Made by a program: the position numbers and the translations under genes. Below are positions 5,675-30,612 of a stretch of 32,000 bases of DNA, piece by piece; position 1 is the stretch's first letter, and each line of letters begins with the position of its first letter. A model generated the notes under the pieces. The model was not told the DNA's origin and searched no databases. It worked only from the letters and a program-made list of their open reading frames with translations. Origin of the DNA: Anaerolineae bacterium (GTDB taxonomy: Bacteria > Chloroflexota > Anaerolineae > Promineifilales > Promineifilaceae); the NCBI GenBank assembly GCA_020848035.1, contig JADLAX010000027.1, positions 41,528-73,527 of the forward strand, written 5' to 3'.

Positions 5675-5706
5675 GGGCAAAGGTGCGATAGCCTGCACCT
5701 TTGCCC
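5675..5706 (+). terminator. Strong hairpin after the protease gene (possible terminator, no T-tract)
   Basis: gggcaaaggtgc (5675-5686) pairs perfectly with gcacctttgccc (5695-5706) across an 8-nt loop, starting about 15 nt after the stop. No U-run follows, so the function is tentative. It overlaps the upstream-most TTG start offered by the ORF track for the next gene. Confidence 0.4.
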
Positions 5707-5766
5707 GACAACATTCACCCACCGCAGCCGTGGACAAATTCCCACCCCCTCAAGCAGGAGCAACCC

Positions 5767-7311
5767 TTGGCGATCATTCTCATTACCGGAGCAACCGACG
5801 GCATTGGTCTGGCATTGGCCCAGCAGTACACTTTGGCCAAACACCAGCTGATTTTGGTAGGACGACGGCCGTTTCCCCCCCACCCTGATCCGATGTTCAC
5901 CCCGCAAACCTACTGCCAGGCCGATCTGGCCCAGCCCGATGCCGCCGACACCATTGCCCACTGGCTGGAAAATCAGGGCATTCACACATTAGATTTGCTC
6001 ATCCACAACGCAGGAACCGGCTACTTTGGCGCGCTGGCCGCCCAGCCGCTGGACCAGATTGATGAGCTGCTCACCGCCAACCTGCACAGCCCAATCGCCA
6101 TCACCCACCGGCTGTTTCCCTGGTTGCAAAAGGCGCGGGGCCAGGTAGTGTTTGTCAGCTCGGTGGCGACGGCCGTTCCCACCCCCGAATACGCCGTCTA
6201 TGGGGCCAGCAAACTGGCGCTGGAAGGCTTTGCCCGCAGCCTGCGCGTGGAATGGCAGGGGCAGGTAACGGTGCAAACGATCCGGCCTGGGGCAACCCGC
6301 ACCGGAATGCACCAAAAAATCGGCCTGACCCAGGCACAAATGAATTGGGAAAAGTTTGCCCCGGCGGAAAAAGTGGCCCGCCAGATAATCCGGGCCATTG
6401 AACAGAAACGGCCGTCAGCCACCATCGGCTTGGGCAATCAATTGCTGCGCTTTGTGGGCAGAAACGGCCGTGTCCTGCTCGATCCTCTCCTACGCAGAAG
6501 AGCCACACCGCTTACCAGCCAGCCGACCAGGGCCAGCGCCGCGCCCATCTGCCTCATCACCGGGGCCGCCGACGGCATTGGCCGAGCGCTGGCGCTGCGT
6601 TATGCCCAGGCGGGCTATCACATCATTGGGCTGGACGTTGACGGCACCAAAGCGGCCCACACGCGAGCCGAGATCGTCGCCCAGGGCGGCCAGGCGGAAT
6701 TTATCCTGGGGGATTTGAGCAGCCGGGCCGAATTGGCCGCCATGCTGCCCCAACTGGCTACGCTTGGCCCATTCAGCTGCGTCATTCACAACGCAGGCAT
6801 CAGCGCCGTGGGGCGTTTTGAGGCGCTGCCACTGGACCGGCAGCAGGCGGTGCTGCACCTCAACTTGCATGCCCCGCTCTGGCTGACGGCCGAACTGTTC
6901 CGGCAAAAGTGGCTCATGCCGGACGCCCGCTTTATCTTCTTATCGTCGCTGTCTTATTTTGCCAGCTACCCGGGGGCGGCGGTCTATGCCGCCAGCAAGG
7001 ATGGCCTGGCCAACTATGCGCGCAGCCTGCAAGCCGCCTGGCGCGGCCGCTGCCTCACCGTGTTCCCTGGCCCGGTACGCACCGCCCACGCCCGCCGCTA
7101 CAGCCCAGACAACAGCCGGGAAGACGGCCGTATGCCCCCCGAAACGCTCGCCAACGCCATCTTCCGCGCCGAACAGGCAGGCAAATCCCGCCTAATTCCT
7201 GGCCCAGCCAACAGAATTATGGGATTCGCAGGTCATCTTTTCCCCGGCCTGCTGGAAATGGGGATGAAAAAGGTGATTTTGGAGAAGTTGGAGGAGAAGG
7301 TAATTGCGTAA
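5767..7311 (+). CDS. Tandem (double) short-chain dehydrogenase/reductase fusion protein
   Basis: Two complete SDR modules are present. Module 1 has ILITGATDGIG, HNAGTGYFG and YGASK. Module 2 has CLITGAADGIG, HNAGISAVG and YAASK. The start is moved from 5701 to the in-frame TTG at 5767, which has AGGAG (5756-5760) 6 nt upstream and gives the usual short SDR N-terminus. Confidence 0.85.
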   Translation: MAIILITGATDGIGLALAQQYTLAKHQLILVGRRPFPPHPDPMFTPQTYCQADLAQPDAADTIAHWLENQGIHTLDLLIHNAGTGYFGALAAQPLDQIDELLTANLHSPIAITHRLFPWLQKARGQVVFVSSVATAVPTPEYAVYGASKLALEGFARSLRVEWQGQVTVQTIRPGATRTGMHQKIGLTQAQMNWEKFAPAEKVARQIIRAIEQKRPSATIGLGNQLLRFVGRNGRVLLDPLLRRRATPLTSQPTRASAAPICLITGAADGIGRALALRYAQAGYHIIGLDVDGTKAAHTRAEIVAQGGQAEFILGDLSSRAELAAMLPQLATLGPFSCVIHNAGISAVGRFEALPLDRQQAVLHLNLHAPLWLTAELFRQKWLMPDARFIFLSSLSYFASYPGAAVYAASKDGLANYARSLQAAWRGRCLTVFPGPVRTAHARRYSPDNSREDGRMPPETLANAIFRAEQAGKSRLIPGPANRIMGFAGHLFPGLLEMGMKKVILEKLEEKVIA

Positions 7312-7328
7312 TTTGTAATTGGGCAATT
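7298..7328. repeat. Left arm of a 31-bp imperfect inverted repeat (28/31) bracketing the low-GC lipoprotein gene
   Basis: aggtaattgcgtaatttgtaattgggcaatt compared with the reverse complement of 7978-8008, aagtaattgagtaatttgtaattgggtaatt. The arm is built from GTAATTN words at spacings of 8, 7 and 8 nt and contains the SDR stop codon (7309-7311). Confidence 0.8.
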
Positions 7329-7849
7329 TATTGAGGCAAAAAGTCAAAACTGTCGATGATTGCCTCAGCAGCTTTCTCTGGCTCATACCCATCACCAATG
7401 GTAAAAATGACAGCCATCCGGTCTGAATTTTGGATCACGATTGTGTAAATTTCCATTTCGAAAGGAACATTGGCGGCTTGGATAATGTAAAAAGCAGATG
7501 CAATATCATATTTTGCGTGCTCGTAGGTGGACATTTGCACTCCGCTCAGAAGCTCTATATCTTTTAAATATTCATCAACTTGAAGTTGCACAGAATCAAC
7601 GGCCGTAGCCGCAGAAACCTCATCAAACACACGAATCCAAATCGTAACATCACCTTGTTCTTTTGCGTTAAACCAAACACCTTCATCTGGTTCACCCTGA
7701 TAAGGCTCCCAATAAGTTGGATGATTGATCGTAAAGCCCAAACTGGAATCGGTGTAAGTTTGATATCGCTGACATGCTGACAATGAAAAAAGCAGCATCA
7801 GCAAGAATACAAGAGGCTTCCGAACAAACTTTGGCACGAGTTTTTCCAT
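7328..7849 (-). CDS. Hypothetical lipoprotein (low-GC gene)
   Basis: 173 aa. Signal peptide with a lipobox (LLMLLFSLSAC). GC is about 40% in the two 60-nt stretches I counted, against about 60% in the flanks. No recognisable domain. Confidence 0.7.
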   Translation of the reverse strand: MEKLVPKFVRKPLVFLLMLLFSLSACQRYQTYTDSSLGFTINHPTYWEPYQGEPDEGVWFNAKEQGDVTIWIRVFDEVSAATAVDSVQLQVDEYLKDIELLSGVQMSTYEHAKYDIASAFYIIQAANVPFEMEIYTIVIQNSDRMAVIFTIGDGYEPEKAAEAIIDSFDFLPQ

Positions 7850-7881
7850 CGTCGGCGACTAGCTAGCAGAATTTTTCATCG

Positions 7882-7898
7882 GCAGATTACACAGATTT
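7882..7898. repeat. 17-mer GCAGATTACACAGATTT, identical copy at 23276-23292
   Basis: Exact 17/17 identity between two spacers 15 kb apart. Each copy is upstream of a minus-strand gene start, preceded by TTTTTCAT and embedded in AGATTT/AAATCT word repeats. Confidence 0.8.
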
Positions 7899-7977
7899 GA
7901 CAGATCTTTTAATCTTTTTAATCGGCGAAATCTTTGTTTTTTCTGGAAACTCATCCCCAATTTCTGGGCACCAACCC

Positions 7978-8008
7978 AATTACCCAATTACAAATTACTC
8001 AATTACTT
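7978..8008. repeat. Right arm of the 31-bp inverted repeat bracketing the low-GC lipoprotein gene
   Basis: aattacccaattacaaattactcaattactt. It contains the recN stop codon (8003-8005). See the left arm at 7298-7328. Confidence 0.8.
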
Positions 8009-9757
8009 AGCTTTCACGGCCGTTTTTGTCCCATTCGCCAGTGCCAGAATCGATTCAGCACCGCCGAGAGCGTGTTCGCCCTGGGTGCCCAGCATCGCGG
8101 CGAGTTCCTGCACCCGGCCGTCGCCCTCCAGCGTTTTGATGCGGGTGGTGGTACGGCCGTCCGCCTGGGCCTTACTAACGTGGAAATGAATGTCGCCATA
8201 ACCGGCCAGCTGCGGCAAATGGGTGACGACGATGACCTGGTGGTGAGCAACGGCCGTTAAACCCCACAACTTGCGCCCCACCACATCCCCCACCCGGCCG
8301 CCAATACCCTGGTCAATCTCGTCGAAGATGAGCGTGGGTGTCTGGTCCACCTGGGCCAGCGCCGTTTTCAGCGCCAGCATGAGGCGGGCCGTTTCACCAC
8401 CGCTGGCAACTTTGGCCATTGGCTTCAGCGGCTCGCCAGGATTGGTGGAAATGAGAAATTCAGCGTGATCAAAGCCCGTCTTGTCAAACGCCAGCCGCTC
8501 CCCCTCAACGTACAGGCCGTCAAATTGTGGTACCCGCTCAAACTGCACTTCAAATTGAGCGCCATCCATCTGCAAATCGGCGAGCTGGGTGACAACGGCC
8601 GTGGCCAAACGCGCCGCCGCCGCCTGCCGTTTTTTCGACAAAGCGAGGGCCATTTCACCGCAGCGCCGCAAATAAGTTTCTTCAGTTTTCACCAGCTCAG
8701 CAATACGCTCCTCGCTGTTGTCGATGCGGGTCAGCTCCAGTTTGGCCCGGTCGCGCAGCGCCAAAATTTTGCCAATGTCCTCGCCATATTTGCGTTTGAG
8801 CAGGTTGAGCAGCTCCAGCCGCTCCTCAACAAAATCGAGCCGACTGGGGTTGTACTCCACTTCATCCAGATAGCTTTGCAGCTCCGACGACACCTCGGTG
8901 AGCTGATAAATCAGCCCCTGCAGCCGCTCCAGCAGCGGTCCCTTCGTTTCATCATAGCGGGTAAGCTGAATGAGTGAGCGTTCGGCCTGGCCCAGCATAT
9001 CGGCCACGGCCTGGCTTTCGTCGTCCATGCCCGTGAGCAGGTTCACCGCCTCAGACGCCGCTTTCATCAGCTGTTCGGAATTGGCCAGGCGTGTTCGTTC
9101 GGCACGCAGCTCTTCTTCTTCCCCTTCCTTGAGCTTGGCCGCTTCAATCTCCTCGATCTGGTAACGCAGCATGTCGGCGCGCTGCGCCAGCATACGCTCA
9201 TTCTGGCGCAAGTCGGCCAGCTCGGTGCGAATCTCCAGGAGTGCGCCGATTTCCTGGGCCAGCGCCGTCCGTTCCACCTGGACCCCGGCGTAGGAATCGA
9301 GCAGCGGCAAGTGAGAGCGCGGCTGGAGCAGCGACAGGTGCTCACCCTGGCCGTGGATGTCGATCAGCGGTTCGGCCACATCGCGCAAGACGGAGAGGTT
9401 GACGGTACGGCCGTTGACCCGACAAATATTACGGCCGTTCAGCCGCAGCTCGCGGGACAGCAGAACGGCATCACCGTGCTCCTCCGCCTCGGCATCCAGC
9501 CCTTCGGCTTCCAGGATGGGGGCCACAATCTGCTTAAGCGCGTCAGACAGGGTAAAGGTCGCTTCAACGTACGCTTCGCCCGCGCCCGACCGCACCAGCG
9601 TGGTGTCGGCCCGCCCGCCCAACATCAGCATCACGGCGTCTAAAATAATGGACTTACCAGCGCCGGTTTCACCCGTCAGCACATTAAAGCCGCTGTGAAA
9701 GTGCAGGCGCAGCTCGTCGATGATGGCAAAATTTCGGATGTAGAGTTCTGTTAACAT
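8003..9757 (-). CDS. recN: DNA repair protein RecN
   Basis: 584 aa. N-terminal Walker A (MLTELYIRNFAIIDEL...LTGETGAGKSIILDA), a long coiled-coil middle, and a C-terminal SMC-like signature and Walker B (SGGETARLMLALK...LIFDEIDQGIGG). Confidence 0.95.
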   Translation of the reverse strand: MLTELYIRNFAIIDELRLHFHSGFNVLTGETGAGKSIILDAVMLMLGGRADTTLVRSGAGEAYVEATFTLSDALKQIVAPILEAEGLDAEAEEHGDAVLLSRELRLNGRNICRVNGRTVNLSVLRDVAEPLIDIHGQGEHLSLLQPRSHLPLLDSYAGVQVERTALAQEIGALLEIRTELADLRQNERMLAQRADMLRYQIEEIEAAKLKEGEEEELRAERTRLANSEQLMKAASEAVNLLTGMDDESQAVADMLGQAERSLIQLTRYDETKGPLLERLQGLIYQLTEVSSELQSYLDEVEYNPSRLDFVEERLELLNLLKRKYGEDIGKILALRDRAKLELTRIDNSEERIAELVKTEETYLRRCGEMALALSKKRQAAAARLATAVVTQLADLQMDGAQFEVQFERVPQFDGLYVEGERLAFDKTGFDHAEFLISTNPGEPLKPMAKVASGGETARLMLALKTALAQVDQTPTLIFDEIDQGIGGRVGDVVGRKLWGLTAVAHHQVIVVTHLPQLAGYGDIHFHVSKAQADGRTTTRIKTLEGDGRVQELAAMLGTQGEHALGGAESILALANGTKTAVKAK

Positions 9758-9770
9758 AGGATTTTGGCGC

Positions 9771-9820
9771 GGAGATGGGAGGGTGGGAAGGCAAAAGTGA
9801 AAAGTAAAAAGTGAAAAGTG
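9771..9820. repeat. Phased heptamer array (7 units), purine-rich on the plus strand
   Basis: ggagatg ggagggt gggaagg caaaagt gaaaagt aaaaagt gaaaagt, located in the recN-upstream spacer. Confidence 0.8.
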
Positions 9821-10713: not shown

Positions 10714-10762
10714 GAAAATTTATCCAAATTTGTAGAGACGTTGCCATGCAACGTCTCTACTA

Positions 10763-11593
10763 TTATCGTGAGTGACCTAAGCGGCCCATGAGCCGCCGGT
10801 AAAAATAGCCCGAACTTTCCACGCGGGCAAATTTGCAGCTGTTTTCCGACTTGGTCACCAGCACCACATCCTCATCCTCCAGCAAAATACCGTCGGTGCC
10901 GTCGGGCGTCAGGTAAGCGTGGTGATCCATATGCACCGTGATCGCAATTTCAGCCTGCTCGTGAAAAATAATCGCCCGATCAAAGGTGAGATGGGGAGCA
11001 ACAGGCACCACCACAAAGTTGGGCAGCTGGGGCGGCAAGAGCGGCCCGCCAGCGGCCATCGAATACGCGGTGGAGCCAGTGGGCGTGGCCACGATCAGGG
11101 CATCGGCGGTGTAGTTGGTGACGTGATCGCCATCCACATGCAGCTGAAAACGCACCACGCGGGCCTGACGGCCGCGTCCCACCACCACGTCGTTAAGGAC
11201 AGAGAAGGTATGCAAGATACGGCCGTTGCGCCGAATCCGCGCCGCCAGCATCAACCGGTTTTCCGTCCAAAAATCACCTTCCAACAACCGGGTCAGCTTC
11301 TCGGGCCAGTCATCAGGCTGGGCCTCGCTTAAAAACCCCACCCGCCCCAGGTTGATGCCAAAAATGGGCACATCTTCCACACAGGCGTAGCGCGCGGCGC
11401 GCAGCAGCGAACCATCACCGCCCAGCACAACCAGAAAGTCGCTACCGTGTACCAGTTGCCCCATGCGTGCCTCGTCGTAGGAGGAGCCAATCCAGGCGGT
11501 AACGCCGCGTTGGGTCAGCCAGGTCTCAATTTCCACAGCCAGCGGCTGCGACTCGGCCACCTTGGGGTGATGGAGAATGCCAATTCGTGTCAT
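10763..11593 (-). CDS. nadK: NAD(+) kinase
   Basis: 276 aa. GGDGSLL motif (FLVVLGGDGSLLRAAR), NDVVV, and TPTGSTAYSMAAGGP, the canonical NAD kinase motifs. Confidence 0.93.
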   Translation of the reverse strand: MTRIGILHHPKVAESQPLAVEIETWLTQRGVTAWIGSSYDEARMGQLVHGSDFLVVLGGDGSLLRAARYACVEDVPIFGINLGRVGFLSEAQPDDWPEKLTRLLEGDFWTENRLMLAARIRRNGRILHTFSVLNDVVVGRGRQARVVRFQLHVDGDHVTNYTADALIVATPTGSTAYSMAAGGPLLPPQLPNFVVVPVAPHLTFDRAIIFHEQAEIAITVHMDHHAYLTPDGTDGILLEDEDVVLVTKSENSCKFARVESSGYFYRRLMGRLGHSR

Positions 11594-11598
11594 AGATG

Positions 11599-11630
11599 GG
11601 ACACTGATTTACACTGATTTACACTGATTT
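11599..11630. repeat. GG + three perfect tandem decamers ACACTGATTT; left arm of an inverted bracket around the GxxExxY gene
   Basis: ggacactgatttacactgatttacactgattt. The reverse complement of 12051-12089 reads ggacactgattgacgctgataaacactgatatttgattt. The first 11 nt are identical and overall identity is about 27/32. Confidence 0.8.
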
Positions 11631-11642
11631 GGGGATGCATTT

Positions 11643-12038
11643 TCAACCTTTTAGGTTTGGTTTTCTCGCATTATCGAATATTTTGCGTTTCTTGGTAGCT
11701 GACGGCCCGAAGTTTAACAGTAGTCCTACTTCAAATGGCGTTGCCTTTAGATAATTTAGCAACTGCGCTTCATGTATCGGCAGCAAGCTCGCCACGGCCT
11801 TAAGCTCCACAATAATTTTGTCCTCAATTAACAAATCGGCAAAATACTCTCCTACAACTTCTCCACGATAATAAACCTGAATTGGTGCTTGCTGCTGCGC
11901 CTTTAGGCCTCTCGCCCGTAACTCTATTGCCATTGAGTTTTCGTAAACTCGTTCAAGAAAACCGTAACCCAGGCTGTTATAAACAGCGTAAAAAGCATCA
12001 ACGATTTGCTGCGTTACGTCCTGGTGTTTGTATTGCAT
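11643..12038 (-). CDS. GxxExxY family protein (PD-(D/E)XK nuclease-fold superfamily)
   Basis: 131 aa. It has the eponymous motif GFLERVY (LGYGFLERVYENSMAIEL) plus ADLLIEDKIIVELKA, a D...E-x-K-like core. GC is about 43% in the stretch I counted. Confidence 0.85.
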   Translation of the reverse strand: MQYKHQDVTQQIVDAFYAVYNSLGYGFLERVYENSMAIELRARGLKAQQQAPIQVYYRGEVVGEYFADLLIEDKIIVELKAVASLLPIHEAQLLNYLKATPFEVGLLLNFGPSATKKRKIFDNARKPNLKG

Positions 12039-12050
12039 ATAACACTCTGC

Positions 12051-12089
12051 AAATCAAATATCAGTGTTTATCAGCGTCAATCAGTGTCC
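12051..12089. repeat. Degenerate inverted copy of the ACACTGATTT decamer array (right arm)
   Basis: aaatcaaatatcagtgtttatcagcgtcaatcagtgtcc. It abuts and overlaps the hisS stop codon by 1 nt. Confidence 0.75.
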
Positions 12090-23218: not shown

Positions 23219-23275
23219 TGCACGCTCCTGTCATGTGAGGAGAACAGTTTTCGAAGTTTTTCATGCACAGATTTC

Positions 23276-23292
23276 GCAGATTACACAGATTT
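23276..23292. repeat. Second copy of the 17-mer GCAGATTACACAGATTT
   Basis: Identical to 7882-7898. It lies 58-74 nt upstream of the zinc-ribbon gene start (23218) in a spacer rich in AGATTT/AAATCT words. Confidence 0.8.
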
Positions 23293-23412
23293 TCTGCTTA
23301 AATCTGCCAAATCCTTTAAATCTTGGATTGTTTGTAGCCAATCAAAAAGATTGTAGCGCAGGGGCGGGCTTGATTCAATCGGGTTTTTGTGGGGAAATGT
23401 GGCCTGCCAAAC

Positions 23413-26124: not shown

Positions 26125-26247
26125 GATGGAAGAAGGAAGAAGGAAGAAGAAAAAGTGAAAAGTAAAAAGTAGACGTTCACCTACCACTTTTGACTTATCA
26201 CTTTTCACTAATCACTTCACTCAATCCTCTCTCACTTTTAACTCACT
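26125..26247. repeat. Inverted pair of phased heptamer arrays (7 purine-rich units, then 10 pyrimidine-rich units)
   Basis: gatggaa gaaggaa gaaggaa gaagaaa aagtgaa aagtaaa aagtaga (26125-26173), then cacctac cactttt gacttat cactttt cactaat cacttca ctcaatc ctctctc actttta actcact (26178-26247). It ends 16 nt before the UPF0182 ATG. Confidence 0.82.
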
Positions 26248-26263: not shown

Positions 26264-29170
26264 ATGAGTCGTGACAACTGGGACATCCCAGAAGTGTTTC
26301 GCCGGGCTATGGAAGAGGCCGGCTGGGAAGGCAATAAAGGTGAGGGCAATGAAGGGGGCGAAGGCGGCGGTCAGCGCCCGCCCATTCCCAATCGCCCAAC
26401 ACAGCCGGGCCGCAGCAACCGCAGTTGGTGGATCGTTGGCATTCTCTTTTTGTTGTTCATCAGCCTCAACTGGATAGTGGGGGTTTATACCGATTGGCTC
26501 TGGTTCAACGAGCTAAATTACCAGAGCGTCTGGCTAAAGCGCTGGAGCTACCAGCTGGGCAGCTTTATCGCCTTTTTTCTAGTTGCCTTCCTTATTTTCT
26601 GGGGCAACTGGCGGCTGGCACGCCAGCGGGCTATCAAGGCCACCCCGCCGTTTTACCCGCGTTTTCTGCAAATCCGCGGCATCCCCTGGCTCATGAGTGG
26701 CGCGGCCCTTTTGTTGGCCTTTGGCTTTGCCAGCTCTATTGCCGTGCGCTGGGACGAATTTCTGCTTTTTCTCAACCGCGTACCTTTTGGCACGGCCGAT
26801 CCCATCTTTGGCCGCGATATCAGCTTCTATCTGTTTGAGCTGCCCGTCTACGAGGCGCTGCAGCAGTGGGCCAGCTCCTTGCTGCTGCTGACGCTGCTGG
26901 GCGTGCTGGCCATTTACGCTGTGAACAACATCGTTGATATTCAGCGGGGCAAGTGGCGGCCGCAGGAATCGGTAATTTTGCGGCAGCATGTGGCCCTGCT
27001 GGCGGCACTGATTTTGCTGCTGTGGGCTGTAGGCTACCTGTTCCAGATTTTTAACCTCAACTATTCACCCCGTGGGGTGGTGTTTGGGGCCAGCTACACC
27101 GACATGAACGCGACGATCTATGCCCTGTATGCCCAAATGGCCTTCATGGGGCTGGCGGCGCTGGTGATGTTGTTTAATGTCTTTCGGCTGAGTTTACGGC
27201 CGTTGCTCCTCATTGGCGCTCTCTGGCTGGCGGCCACAGTGTTGCTGGGTGGCGTCTATCCCGCTATCTTACAGCGGTACGAAGTGGAACCCAATGAACT
27301 GGTGCGCGAGACACCCTACATCCAGTACAACATCGAATTTACCCGCCTGGGCTTTAACCTGGACAAGATTGAAGTACGCAACTTCAGCGAGGTTGATACC
27401 CTAAGCCAGGGTGACGTTACAACCAACAGCGCCGTGTTGTCGAACATTCGCTTGTGGGATTATCGGCCATTACAGCTTACCTTCACCCAATTGCAGGCGT
27501 TACGGCCGTATTACGTCTTTGGTGAAGTCGATATCGATCGCTACGAAATTGACGGTGAAATCCAGCAAGTCATGCTGGCCGCCCGCGAACTCGACAAAAG
27601 CAAGCTATCTTCCCTCTCCTGGGTCAACGAAAGGCTGGAATTCACCCACGGCTATGGCATCGTCATGAACCCCGTCGACCGCTTTACCACCGACGGCCAG
27701 CCCGAATTTTTCATCAAAAACCTGCCGCCAGAGAGTGAAATCCCGCTGCAAGTTACCCGCCCCGAAATCTACTACGGCGAATTCACCAATGACGAGGTGT
27801 TTGTTGGCAGCGCCCGCGAAGAGTTTAGCTACCCCAGCGGTAACGAAAACGTCTACTCCAGCTACGAAGGCAGCGGCGGTGTACCGCTCGACAACTTCCT
27901 CAAACGCATAGCCTTTGCCCTCCGCCTCGGCGACGCCAACGTCCTGCTCAGCGATGAAATCAACACCCAAACCCGGGTGCAAATCCACCGCCAGATTCAG
28001 GAACGGGTGCGGCTGCTGACCCCCTTCCTGGCCCTGGACAGCGATCCCTACGTGGTGCTCACGAATGATGGCAACCTCATCTGGGTGCAGGATGCCTTTA
28101 CCTACAGCAGGCGTTTCCCCTACGCGACACCCAACAGCATCCTGCCCAACAGCGATATTCCCGGCGAGCTTGCCAATATTAACTACGTGCGCAACGCCGT
28201 TAAAATCACCATTGATGCCTACAACGGAACCGTCAACTACTACGTTGTGGACGAACAAGACCCCATCATCCAATCATACAGCCGTGCCTTCCCTGGTCTC
28301 TTTAAGCCGTTCAGCGAAATGCCGGAAAATCTGCAAAACCATCTACGCTACCCGGAAGATTTGTTCACCATTCAGGCGCAGCAATACCTGCGCTACCACA
28401 TGACCGACGTCCGCGTTTTCTTCAACCAGGAAGACGTGTGGCAAATCCCGCAAGAGGTGTATGAAGGCAATCAGCAGCTAATGGAGCCGTACTATGTCAT
28501 CATGCCGCTGCCTGGGGAAACAGAAAGTGAATACTTACTTATCCAACCGTTTAACCCCACCGGCAAAGACAACATGATCGCCTGGATGGCCGCCCGCAAC
28601 GATCCCGCCAACTACGGCCAGTTGGTGATGTATGAACTGCCCAAGCAGGAGCTTGTTTTTGGCCCGATGCAAATCGAAAGCCGCATCAACCAGGATTCCT
28701 TCATCTCGCAGCAGTTTGCCCTCTGGGATCAGGGTGGCTCCAACGTGCTGCGCGGCAATCTGCTGGTGATTCCTCTGGGCAACAGCTTTTTGTACGTGGA
28801 ACCCATCTACCTGCAAGCCTCAACCAGCGCTCTGCCCGAACTCAAGCGGGTGATCGTGGCCACCGATACCCGGATCGCCATGGATTTGACGCTAGACCGG
28901 GCCTTAACGGCCCTGCTGGCCGCCGAGCCGGGCGAAATTACGCCTGAGCTTGAAGGGCTGGAAACGGCCGAAGATCCAGTACCCGAACCAACTACACCCA
29001 CCATCCCCACTGCCCCGCTTGATGCCTCCGTGGAAGAGCTGATCGCCTCGGCCAACGCCCACTTTGAAGCGGCTCAAGCAGCCCAGCAAAGCGGCGATTG
29101 GGCCACCTACGGCGCTGAATTGAAAGCTCTGGAAAGTGACCTGGCCCGGTTAATGGAACTGACGGAGTAG
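26264..29170 (+). CDS. UPF0182 family large membrane protein
   Basis: 968 aa. Gly/Glu/Pro-rich N-terminus, about 7 TM helices, then a large soluble region with UPF0182-typical stretches (YIQYNIEFTR, LWDYRPL, LRPYYVFGEVDIDRY, LIQPFNPTGKDNMIAWMAA). Confidence 0.88.
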   Translation: MSRDNWDIPEVFRRAMEEAGWEGNKGEGNEGGEGGGQRPPIPNRPTQPGRSNRSWWIVGILFLLFISLNWIVGVYTDWLWFNELNYQSVWLKRWSYQLGSFIAFFLVAFLIFWGNWRLARQRAIKATPPFYPRFLQIRGIPWLMSGAALLLAFGFASSIAVRWDEFLLFLNRVPFGTADPIFGRDISFYLFELPVYEALQQWASSLLLLTLLGVLAIYAVNNIVDIQRGKWRPQESVILRQHVALLAALILLLWAVGYLFQIFNLNYSPRGVVFGASYTDMNATIYALYAQMAFMGLAALVMLFNVFRLSLRPLLLIGALWLAATVLLGGVYPAILQRYEVEPNELVRETPYIQYNIEFTRLGFNLDKIEVRNFSEVDTLSQGDVTTNSAVLSNIRLWDYRPLQLTFTQLQALRPYYVFGEVDIDRYEIDGEIQQVMLAARELDKSKLSSLSWVNERLEFTHGYGIVMNPVDRFTTDGQPEFFIKNLPPESEIPLQVTRPEIYYGEFTNDEVFVGSAREEFSYPSGNENVYSSYEGSGGVPLDNFLKRIAFALRLGDANVLLSDEINTQTRVQIHRQIQERVRLLTPFLALDSDPYVVLTNDGNLIWVQDAFTYSRRFPYATPNSILPNSDIPGELANINYVRNAVKITIDAYNGTVNYYVVDEQDPIIQSYSRAFPGLFKPFSEMPENLQNHLRYPEDLFTIQAQQYLRYHMTDVRVFFNQEDVWQIPQEVYEGNQQLMEPYYVIMPLPGETESEYLLIQPFNPTGKDNMIAWMAARNDPANYGQLVMYELPKQELVFGPMQIESRINQDSFISQQFALWDQGGSNVLRGNLLVIPLGNSFLYVEPIYLQASTSALPELKRVIVATDTRIAMDLTLDRALTALLAAEPGEITPELEGLETAEDPVPEPTTPTIPTAPLDASVEELIASANAHFEAAQAAQQSGDWATYGAELKALESDLARLMELTE

Positions 29171-29239
29171 ATGAGGGATAAAGGATGAGAGATGAGGGAT
29201 GAGAGATGAGGGATGAGGGATGAAGTGGGAGGTGAGAGG
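29170..29239. repeat. Ten-unit phased heptamer array GATGAGR
   Basis: gatgagg gataaag gatgaga gatgagg gatgaga gatgagg gatgagg gatgaag tgggagg tgagagg. It starts at the last base of the UPF0182 stop codon. Confidence 0.85.
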
Positions 29240-29316: not shown

Positions 29317-30132
29317 TCATTTATCAAAATGAATTTCAGCAGGTTTGGCATAGCCCAACGACAAATGTGGGCGGTCGTAGTTGTACAGCCAAACCGCTTC
29401 GGCCACAGCCTGTTGCGCGTGCGCCACATTGACAAACAGGTCATCAAGACCATACTCGTTCTTTAAAATGCCGTTCATACGTTCGGCCAAAGCGTTGTCG
29501 TAGCAGTTGCCTACCTCACCCATGCTGGGTAGCAAGCTGTGCTCTCTGAGGCAATCACGGTACGGCCAAGAAGTGTATTGCACGCCATGGTCGGAATGAT
29601 GGACCAACCCGGCCACCGGACAATGGGCCTGGTTGATAGCCAGCTGCAAAGCACGCAGGCAGCCTTCCGTGGCCAAAGAGGTAGAAATATCATAACCGAC
29701 AATAAAGCGCGAAAAGGCATCGGTCAGCAGAGCCAGATAGACAAAGCCCGTTTCCGTCGTGATGTAGGTGATGTCACCAACCCACGCTTGATAGGGAGCC
29801 TCCAACGTCAATTCCGCCAGACGATTGGGGCAACGCCAGGAGCCAGCTAAGGTGGTTCGCCGTTGATTCCGCTTGGGGACAATCAGTAACTCATGGGCGC
29901 GTAGCAGGTTAAAAAAAGCATCTCGACCACGGGTAATCTCCAGGTTTCCCCAGCAGGGCCGCAGTTCATGATACAGCTTGCGTCCTCCCATCTGGGGATG
30001 GAGCCGCCGTTTTTCTTTGACCAAGTCCAGGAGGATCTGGTTCTCAGCTTCCTGTTGCTGCTGTCGCTGTTTGGCTTGAAAGTAGGCTTGACGGCTGATG
30101 TCAAACCAGGTCACGGCGGCTTGAGTCGTCAC
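29317..30132 (-). CDS. IS3-family transposase OrfB (DDE/rve integrase domain)
   Basis: WVGDITYITTETGFVYLALLTDAFSRFIVGY (first D), HSDHGVQYTS (second D), NCYDNALAERMNGILKNE (E). The frame is -1 relative to orfA, so the natural product is probably an OrfAB fusion. Confidence 0.9.
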   Translation of the reverse strand: MTTQAAVTWFDISRQAYFQAKQRQQQQEAENQILLDLVKEKRRLHPQMGGRKLYHELRPCWGNLEITRGRDAFFNLLRAHELLIVPKRNQRRTTLAGSWRCPNRLAELTLEAPYQAWVGDITYITTETGFVYLALLTDAFSRFIVGYDISTSLATEGCLRALQLAINQAHCPVAGLVHHSDHGVQYTSWPYRDCLREHSLLPSMGEVGNCYDNALAERMNGILKNEYGLDDLFVNVAHAQQAVAEAVWLYNYDRPHLSLGYAKPAEIHFDK

Positions 30133-30155
30133 TTGGTCGGCTTGCCGGATATGGT

Positions 30156-30521
30156 CTATGATTTCTTGCCGAAATTTTTTTTAAGGTCTAGGCGCAACGC
30201 TTCACTGGCCACCGTGAGTGTCGCTTCCAACATGCGGTTATCCAGGGTACTTTGAGCCAGGGCTGATTCCAACTCGGCGACCCGTCGTTTGAGTGCTTTG
30301 AGCCCCTCCTGGTCTTCGGCTGTTTGGATGACTACCAGCTCGGCACGGTAACCAAAACGGCCGTATCGTTCGATCCATCGTTGCACGGTGAGATGCGACC
30401 CGATACCGTATTTGTCGCGCAAGCTGTAAATGCTGGCCCCGGCTTCATATTCACGCACAACTTGTTGCTTGAAGGCCAGGCTGTAACGTCTGACGGTTTC
30501 TTTTTTCATAAGGTTGCCCAT
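30156..30521 (-). CDS. IS3-family transposase OrfA (HTH)
   Basis: 121 aa. RRYSLAFKQQVVREYEAGASIYSLRDKYGIGSHLTVQRWIERY HTH region plus a leucine-zipper-like tail. The alternative start is the ATG at 30509. Confidence 0.88.
   Translation of the reverse strand: MGNLMKKETVRRYSLAFKQQVVREYEAGASIYSLRDKYGIGSHLTVQRWIERYGRFGYRAELVVIQTAEDQEGLKALKRRVAELESALAQSTLDNRMLEATLTVASEALRLDLKKNFGKKS
30175..30182 (-). other. A8 slippery run: candidate programmed -1 ribosomal frameshift site of the IS3 transposase
   Basis: The minus strand reads CTT AAA AAA AAT near the end of orfA. The orfB frame is exactly -1 relative to orfA (first-base coordinates are 2 mod 3 for orfA and 0 mod 3 for orfB). Confidence 0.7.
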
Positions 30522-30572
30522 CCTAAAGGGTAATTATATCTGTCAACTATATTTAGGACGGGTCAGGTCATT

Positions 30573-30612
30573 CACTTCTCACTTCTCACTTCTCACTTTT
30601 TACTTCTCACTG
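30573..30612. repeat. Phased heptamer array CACTTCT (about 5.5 units)
   Basis: cacttct cacttct cacttct cactttt tacttct cactg, directly after the IS3 right end and 7 nt before the DinB-family ATG. A remnant, tttcacttctcattttt, lies on the other side of the IS (29254-29270). Confidence 0.85.

Follow-up and report, generated by a model that had tools for sequence, protein, structure and literature searches.

The DNA analysed here, called the window below, is a 32,000-nucleotide (nt) stretch from an Anaerolineae bacterium of the phylum Chloroflexota (GenBank assembly GCA_020848035.1, contig JADLAX010000027.1, positions 41,528 to 73,527). It contains an inverted repeat whose two arms enclose a small lipoprotein gene between recN and the gene for a double short-chain dehydrogenase (SDR), and we address the nature of these arms. 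The lipoprotein gene closes a co-directional gene string (hisS, GxxExxY gene, NAD kinase gene, tetratricopeptide repeat protein gene, recN, lipoprotein gene). An earlier note, made from the letters alone, had described the locus as a low-GC insert between two convergent genes. The low GC content was recovered (0.42 over positions 7201-8000, with flanks at 0.62-0.67, where the note had about 40% and about 60%). Convergence applies to the SDR gene only; recN lies on the same (minus) strand as the lipoprotein gene, and the insert is therefore located downstream of recN. The gene itself, given as 173 amino acids (aa), is present, but its probable start codon is GTG at 7835-7837, yielding 169 aa, given that a close relative (L002, see below) lacks the upstream ATG. 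The spacer of AGATTT words upstream of the gene also exists and turned out to be another inverted array, built of 9-nt units and nested between the arms.

A repeat search of the window returned the inverted repeat as two 29-nt arms, 93% complementary (27 of 29 positions) and 649 nt apart (Table 1). Direct reading of the slightly longer version proposed before (31 bp, 7298-7328 versus 7978-8008) gave the same 28/31 agreement, and the word spacing of 8-7-8 is identical in the left and right arms, as claimed. Each arm is a tandem array of GTAATTN(N) units and has no unique terminal sequence. With four head-to-tail units per arm, the arms have the make-up of heptamer-type simple sequence repeats (units of 5-11 nt, at least three copies). 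The left arm begins three codons ahead of the SDR stop codon and finishes at the lipoprotein stop codon, and the recN stop codon falls in the first unit of the right arm; the note had correctly placed both the SDR and the recN stop within the arms. There is no target-site duplication, as GGAGAAG (7293-7299) and TTAGCTT (8007-8013) are not direct repeats.

The likeness of the arms might merely reflect chance similarity of AT-rich low-complexity words, a possibility the earlier note had raised against itself, and the arms are indeed AT-rich and internally repetitive. However, a degenerate 29-mer of the arm had only two matches in the window, both being the arms, and none in 100 dinucleotide-preserving shuffles. 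Besides the irregular 8-7-8 spacing, two of the three spacer blocks are identical between the arms, and related genomes as well as an empty site show the same arrangement. Chance can thus be dismissed for practical purposes.

The lipoprotein comes from an Anaerolineae metagenome-assembled genome (proteins MCC6603558/9). Among 5.8 billion clustered proteins, it has only five close relatives, and all of its close homologues are located at the recN-ctpB locus. No copy of the gene with arms was found at a nonorthologous site, either in the window or among the close homologues. Four relatives (L002, L003, L004, and L205) have the gene at the recN site, and arrays are present in the first three. In L002 (lipoprotein 93% identical at the aa level), the order is recN-lipoprotein-SDR-ctpB; the recN-side arm is identical to that of the window, and the other arm consists of GTAATTG, GTAATTCA, GTAATTGA, and GTAATTT. 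In L003 and L004 (61% and 58% aa identity), the order is recN-lipoprotein-ctpB without the SDR gene, with four units after recN and two units starting exactly at the lipoprotein stop codon. The arms of these three relatives differ in unit number (four versus two), in spacing (8-7-8 versus 7-8-8), and in the variable bases; unit-number polymorphism of this kind between close relatives is a mark of slippage. In L205 (58% aa identity), the lipoprotein gene occupies the same place without arrays, and a GC-rich hairpin lies 3' of the gene. The earlier note had named the same gene in this position without repeats as evidence against its own interpretation, and L205 is such a case.

The opposite situation, arms without the gene, was found in Candidatus Leptofilum proximum (L217; GCA_016710325.1), which has a 94% identical RecN and a synonymous divergence (dS) to the window of 0.5-0.85, with 0.67 for recN. 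This empty site lacks both the lipoprotein and the SDR gene. Its 54-nt recN-ctpB spacer reads GTAATTGA GTAATTGA GTAATTT-GCTCGC-AAATTACCC AATTAC, corresponding to 3 + 2 GTAATT units around a 6-nt loop, and its right flank (TTCTCCACATCTA...) is the flank behind the two-unit arm in L003/L004. The hairpin has a folding energy of -17.2 kcal/mol, compared with -8.9 +/- 2.5 for shuffled sequences. Both arms are kept here without the gene, contrary to what is expected of terminal inverted repeats brought by an insert. Therefore, the arms belong to the site and are not the termini of a transposable element. In deeper relatives (L128, L129, and L136; RecN 60-67% identical), recN and ctpB are directly convergent without a lipoprotein gene, and the spacers hold other heptamer arrays, among them an inverted pair in L128 (GACTGGA/GATTGGA x7, loop, TCTCCAA x4). 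The segment between the arms thus behaves as a discrete accessory insert, being low in GC and absent from the deeper relatives and from L217. The stretch that follows recN is a hot spot of variation. No inverted arrays were found around the other downstream inserts in L125, L127, L130, and L134. As a separate observation, the recN stop codon in L125 (RecN 84% identical) is followed by GTAAATT-like heptamers and then by a low-GC methyltransferase-like gene in the place of the lipoprotein gene (1332-1700).

We consider it probable that an intergenic tandem-repeat hairpin occupies the recN-ctpB site, with the arms as its two halves, and that the lipoprotein gene sits in the loop of this hairpin and is not transposon-borne. 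The arms persist without the gene and change by whole units, the gene is also present without arrays, and the cargo has a history of its own. Between the window and L002, dS was 0.087 for the lipoprotein gene and 0.25-0.43 for the flanks, and between L003 and L004, it was 0.19 and 0.87, respectively. Between the window and L003, the order was reversed, with 1.71 for the lipoprotein gene and 0.75 for the flanks. Since the values lie both below and above those of the flanks, a gene-specific rate does not explain them; they indicate exchange between lineages. The gene thus falls into deep allele classes A (window, L002), B (L003, L004), and C (L205), which have spread recently between lineages. 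In both comparisons, the drop in identity on the SDR/ctpB side coincides with the arm; on the recN side, the short length precludes such resolution.

The earlier note had interpreted the locus as a cargo element resembling a miniature inverted-repeat transposable element (MITE), in which the arms would be the terminal inverted repeats of a nonautonomous transposon with its transposase encoded elsewhere. As in MITEs, a real inverted repeat surrounds a short segment without a transposase inside; it contains one low-GC gene, which is absent from some relatives and has a history discordant with that of its flanks. Unlike MITE termini, the arms stay at the empty site of L217, lack a target-site duplication, have no further copy in the window, and are simple tandem repeats of variable unit number. 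Dispersed copies of the element were not found: the close homologues are all at one locus, in L205 without arms. In addition, no transposase recurs beside such arrays among the matches listed in the GTAATT scan described below. A MITE is therefore a very unlikely explanation. The second possibility mentioned in the note, a paired structural element that insulates the insert, comes close to the hairpin interpretation favoured here.

A second cassette of similar build is present at the hisS-nadK junction and carries a GxxExxY gene (Table 1). Relatives with a 75-99% identical GxxExxY protein share the synteny and the arms, with two units rather than three in L207. Since dS is saturated and concordant in cargo and flanks, the GxxExxY cassette is old. 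The ACACTG cores of its arms persist nevertheless, the arms being conserved in L212 and L213. L126 has an unrelated noncoding element of 255 nt between these arms, and its homology to L212 ends precisely where the arms begin on the inner side. The boundaries of the cargo coincide with the inner edges of the arms at two sites. L130 and L138 have inverted arrays of other units at the hisS-nadK junction and no gene. In L217, only TAG-GAC-TCAGTGTCC-CATTTATG is present at the GxxExxY site, as if the hairpin tip had been lost.

Where the same arms hold different cargo and the breakpoints fall at their inner edges, as in L126 versus L212, an active recombination site could also be at work: a recombinase or nuclease dedicated to such hairpins or repeats would insert and swap loop cassettes in the manner of a folded integron attC site. 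The empty and occupied states of one hairpin, the horizontal exchange of the lipoprotein cassette, and the presence of two such cassettes in one window are in line with this explanation. Against it, no integrase or recombinase gene is located near either cassette, the only mobile-element genes of the window being an IS3 pair (29317-30521), and no protein family recurs beside the arrays among the matches listed. Unlike integron cassettes, the locus has no integrase among the open reading frames (ORFs) of the window, and the attC core R''/R' (GTTRRRY) is absent from both arms. Moreover, the at least seven unit sequences of the window would require many specificities, and slippage at the level of units accounts for the arm variation. 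We judge a dedicated recombination site to be distinctly unlikely.

Table 1. Coordinates of the features discussed in the text (window positions unless another locus is named; a dot marks features without an assigned strand)
Feature	Position	Strand	Description
Left arm	7300-7328	+	Four tandem units: GTAATTGC, GTAATTT, GTAATTGG, GCAATT
Right arm	7978-8006	-	Four tandem units: GTAATTGA, GTAATTT, GTAATTGG, GTAATT
Lipoprotein gene (cargo)	7328-7849	-	Lipobox LSAC, GC 0.42
recN	8003-9757	-	Upstream neighbour of the lipoprotein gene, same strand
recN stop codon TAA	8003-8005	-	Inside the right arm
Double SDR gene	5701-7311	+	Convergent on the cassette
SDR stop codon TAA	7309-7311	+	Inside the left arm
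Nested repeat hairpin	7883-7932	.	CAGATnnnn x3, then nnnnAATC x3; recN-lipoprotein spacer
Second cassette, left arm	11601-11630	+	ACACTGATTT x3; ends 7 nt before the NAD kinase start codon
Second cassette, cargo (131-aa GxxExxY gene)	11643-12038	-	TIGR04256, E 9e-42; GC 0.43
Second cassette, right arm	12059-12088	-	GACACTGATT, GACGCTGATA, AACACTGATA; directly after the hisS stop codon
AAAAGTG x4 array	9793-9820	+	Spacer upstream of recN
Short-loop repeat hairpin	26128-26217	.	GGAAGAA x3, AAAAGTG x3, then inverted CACTTTT/TCACTTA x6
CACAGATTT-family hairpins	7883-7932, 23266-23330 (window); L138 2161-2250, 8349-8447; L141 5055-5137

If the hairpin interpretation is correct, the arrays would arise and be resized by replication slippage, and the likeness of the arms would be kept by hairpin-templated correction or by selection for pairing. 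Inverted pairs would be favoured either mechanistically or via selection on the stem. Cargo would enter, be replaced, or be lost at the hairpin tip and not by transposition; such tip exchange could proceed, for example, via breakage of an extruded hairpin or via recombination in the 20-30 nt of arm homology. In a recN-lipoprotein cotranscript, the arms would pair as a stem of about 29 bp and leave the foreign cistron in a loop, comparable to the stems of rRNA intervening sequences (IVSs). In predicted folds of the minus-strand transcript, the arms were paired in the minimum free energy and centroid structures of both cassettes (z scores of -4.1 and -5.7). No matches to a minus-strand promoter or terminator were found in 7200-8100, and no Rfam family matched over 6500-9000 at E<=1. 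The predicted arm pairing, together with the lack of a promoter or terminator consensus between recN and the lipoprotein gene, makes it plausible that a long-range stem places the foreign cistron in a loop.

Several points weigh against this interpretation. The lipoprotein site fits either insertion into a preexisting hairpin or loss of cargo, and L205 shows that the arms are dispensable for keeping the lipoprotein gene. Pairing in register extends over only about 15 nt in L002, and the energy of the arm duplex declines from -37 kcal/mol in the window to about -19 to -22 kcal/mol in L003/L004, with no duplex in L205. Clean compensatory changes between the arms were not found; the spacer bases drift around conserved cores. 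Such weak and non-co-varying arms argue against strong selection for a long perfect stem. Cotranscription and processing at the stem are predictions only, and the hairpin interpretation does not account for the recurrence of the GTAATT core across many phyla.

Arrays of this type are not confined to the two cassettes. About 10 short tandem arrays with periods of 7-10 nt are present in the window, in most spacers longer than 40 nt, and they comprise at least seven distinct unit sequences. The AAAAGTG x4 array upstream of recN illustrates that arrays are general in the spacers of this genome. Tandem Repeats Finder, applied to 0.5 Mb of related Chloroflexota recN loci, detected 113 arrays, 55 of them with period 7. 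In these loci, 10 inverted pairs of the same unit with loops of 5-60 nt contrast with one direct pair.

In a collection with a single genome for each species, we also scanned for three GTAATT units spaced by 7-8 nt. GTAATTN arrays were found in at least 120 stretches from Cyanobacteria, Acidobacteriota, Bacteroidota, Chloroflexota, Planctomycetota, Ignavibacteria, and others (more than eight phyla). Many of the listed arrays have 4-10 identical units, which greatly exceeds the about 70 three-unit matches expected collection-wide by our own arithmetic under uniform composition. The following numbers refer to the matches listed. Outside of long ORFs were 131 of the 145 GTAATT arrays, and their orientation relative to the adjacent gene end was unbiased (55 forward, 48 reverse). 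Among near neighbours, 10 pairs were inverted and 6 direct; in L083, L010, and L091, the arms are oriented as in the window but have loops of 5-28 nt. A further 307 arrays in these loci are made of other units, and 352 of all 470 arrays have period 7. Intergenic location, many unit families, and a predominant period of 7 are characteristic of heptamer-type repeats. No gene family recurred beside the arrays in an all-against-all BLAST of 196 neighbouring ORFs, which ruled out that the arrays mark one mobile gene family (four-helix-bundle/IVS protein, GxxExxY, or transposase). Only one other GxxExxY ORF was present in the 120 listed loci, and it did not adjoin an array. A function as a three-frame translational stop, with one TAA per unit and a period of 7-8, was rejected on the basis of the orientation (55 versus 48).

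The conservation of a six-base core next to variable spacer bases raises the possibility that the arrays are operators, that is, that GTAATT units are bound by a sequence-specific DNA-binding protein which would coat the foreign gene on either side and silence or regulate it, as ribbon-helix-helix repressors do on direct and inverted heptad arrays. Conservation of the ACACTG core of the second cassette at saturated dS and its 10-nt period, which equals one helical turn, would suit such binding sites. The 7-8 nt periods, in contrast, place successive sites on different faces of the helix. Many unrelated units coexist in one genome, the arrays of more than eight phyla have no common neighbouring gene among the matches listed, and the L205 gene has no sites at all. 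This explanation therefore appears quite improbable.

The cargo itself was characterized by sequence and structure comparison. The lipobox is located at residues 23-26, with a Cys that is invariant in six sequences, as in bacterial lipoproteins. A weak PsbP_2 match was obtained, and a structure model of medium confidence (pLDDT 67.5) had its best structural matches among PsbP/Mog1-fold proteins; a PsbP/Mog1-like fold is thus predicted. A profile search of 1.84 billion representatives returned only 12 relatives. One of them, P0126, is 38% identical over the full length. The genes of P0126 and P0127 start 12-14 nt after ORFs that open with the end of an RHS repeat-associated core domain and run on into a C-terminal tip common to both, which is where an immunity gene is canonically found. 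In loci L214 (833-1345), L215 (879-1391), and L216 (857-1387), remote lipoprotein homologues lie 12-14 nt after Rhs core/toxin tips. A C-terminal domain (VSAGHVFRY...LDMYYYG) that matches nothing in Pfam is common to the Rhs tips. Tip and lipoprotein homologue are candidates for a new toxin-immunity pair.

Orphan immunity genes are a known concept in Rhs and other polymorphic toxin systems. Like these, the cargo is small, fast-evolving, low in GC, and horizontally exchanged, and its homologues P0126 and P0127 lie behind Rhs tips. Unlike Rhs immunity pairs, the window has no toxin gene: no Rhs toxin homologue was found anywhere in its 32 kb, and a position directly after a toxin tip applies to P0126 and P0127 and not to the window copy. 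From gene position, we infer that the cargo may be an orphan immunity-like lipoprotein, which would fit its low GC content, fast divergence, and exchange between lineages.

Several known systems resemble the arms or their arrangement. The short tandemly repeated repetitive (STRR) sequences of cyanobacteria were reportedly described by Mazel et al. in 1990. Like STRRs and long simple sequence repeats (LSSRs), the arrays described here have 7-10 nt units in 3-10 copies and are almost all intergenic, with many unit families per genome, period 7 as the commonest, and copy numbers that vary between relatives. The phyla overlap as well (Cyanobacteria, Bacteroidota, and others). Unlike LSSRs and STRRs, they occur in a Chloroflexota host and very frequently as inverted hairpin pairs, with whole genes in two loops. 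REP/BIME sequences (repetitive extragenic palindromes and bacterial interspersed mosaic elements) of enterobacteria and pseudomonads are multicopy, intergenic near gene 3' ends, often arranged as inverted stem-loop pairs, and preferred insertion targets. Each REP unit forms an imperfect palindrome 20-40 nt long, and RAYT transposases are associated with such units. In position and pairing, the arms resemble REP/BIME; unlike these, they are tandem arrays of nonpalindromic GTAATT units, and no RAYT was seen. The GxxExxY family also occurs in rRNA IVSs. Like IVSs of 23S rRNA, the cassettes are foreign small-ORF segments at the tip of a predicted helix between inverted repeats, inside a putative host transcription unit; unlike IVSs, they are located in protein-gene operons, and the likeness is one of geometry only. 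The rRNA IVSs are processed by RNase III, and tandem heptamers of variable copy number occur at an IVS border in Coxiella (PMC4990558).

Heptanucleotides are the most abundant long simple sequence repeats in bacteria, and slippage has been proposed as their origin (PMC4679880); the dominance of heptamers among LSSRs goes back to Mrazek et al. 2007, as summarised in the same article. Direct TAACTGA repeats are common to Beggiatoaceae, Cyanobacteria, and Bacteroidetes (MacGregor 2015, PMC4679880). Like them, the GTAATT arrays consist of one stop-codon-containing heptamer in the spacers of distant phyla, with no visible transfer mechanism. The unit is different (GTAATTN), however, and the GTAATT arms do not belong to the TAACTGA repeat network. 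Inverted pairs are common here, in contrast to one indirect repeat reported there. TAACTGA repeats are located mainly just upstream of start codons and in one orientation, whereas GTAATT arrays have no orientation bias and the arms abut stop codons. Relative L130 carries a TAACTGA-type array (CAGTTAT x3) at its hisS-nadK junction; since CAGTTAT is a rotation of the TAACTGA reverse complement, the TAACTGA family extends to Chloroflexota. This spacer (L130, 1076-1161) reads GTAATCA/CAGTTAT x6, followed by inverted GATAACC x5. A literature search for the exact doubled repeat units returned nothing relevant.

The feature belongs to the class of heptamer-type simple sequence repeats and lacks the tested hallmarks of MITEs and integron cassettes. 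New compared to the literature found are the abundance of arrays in Chloroflexota, the strong tendency to form inverted pairs, and the whole genes of variable content in the loops. For annotation, this means that automated searches for MITEs or cargo elements would miscall such loci in array-rich genomes. Heptamer arrays, known mainly from cyanobacteria, are abundant in a wastewater Chloroflexota lineage, preferentially as hairpins. In the conserved hisS-nadK-recN string, the content of at least two hairpin loops varies among relatives, and the boundaries of this variation lie at the arm edges. A broader proposal, which we hold to be unlikely, is that accessory genes of Chloroflexota, and possibly of the other array-rich phyla, could generally dock at inverted array hairpins: cargo would be captured, swapped, and lost at the tip within housekeeping operons, and the arms would excise or insulate the cistron in RNA in the manner of rRNA IVS stems. 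If this were true, the arrays would provide gene flux with a functional and transferable platform and would be more than inert products of slippage. If general, the arrangement would offer a testable route by which small accessory genes, such as those for immunity-like lipoproteins and GxxExxY nuclease-fold proteins, enter and leave operons while these stay undisrupted, and a role for the widespread heptamer arrays, which so far have no function.

The genes around the arms vary in ways of their own. The double SDR gene is present in the window and in L002 and missing from L003, L004, L205, and L217, where ctpB adjoins the left arm. Its C terminus extends variably into the array (EKVIA* in the window, GKVIGNSVIE* in L002, where the frame reads on through 10 codons of the array). 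RecN is 580-588 aa long across its 90% cluster, and in L003, L004, and L217, among the loci read, recN ends differently within the array; the context of the recN stop codon, AAG-TAA-TTG, is also found in L205, which has no array. The nested hairpin in the recN-lipoprotein spacer is missing from the allele-B relatives L003 and L004, and its 9-nt unit occurs again at 23266-23330 of the window. The family of this unit (CACAGATTT, inverted AAATCTG) forms short-loop hairpins in several unrelated spacers of this genome and its relatives.

The IS3-family pair of the window (orfA, 30156-30521; orfB, 29317-30132) is flanked by arrays as well, AGATGAG x10 (29169-29238) and TCACTTC x6 (30572-30611). These arrays are not GTAATT. 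From this placement, arrays may be preferred insertion targets. The palindromic octamer ACGGCCGT has 60 copies in the 32 kb (e.g., 7599-7606, 8016-8023, and 9407-9414), compared with 0.64 expected from shuffles. It is mostly intragenic, the low-GC lipoprotein gene included, is visible in L003 and L214, and is a highly iterated palindrome of the HIP1 type in a Chloroflexota genome. Finally, an inverted repeat of the CIRCE (controlling inverted repeat of chaperone expression) type, TTAGCACTC-N9-GAGTGCTAA, was detected at 2696-2722 upstream of hrcA (1575-2678) and is also present in L217 at about 10761-10787.

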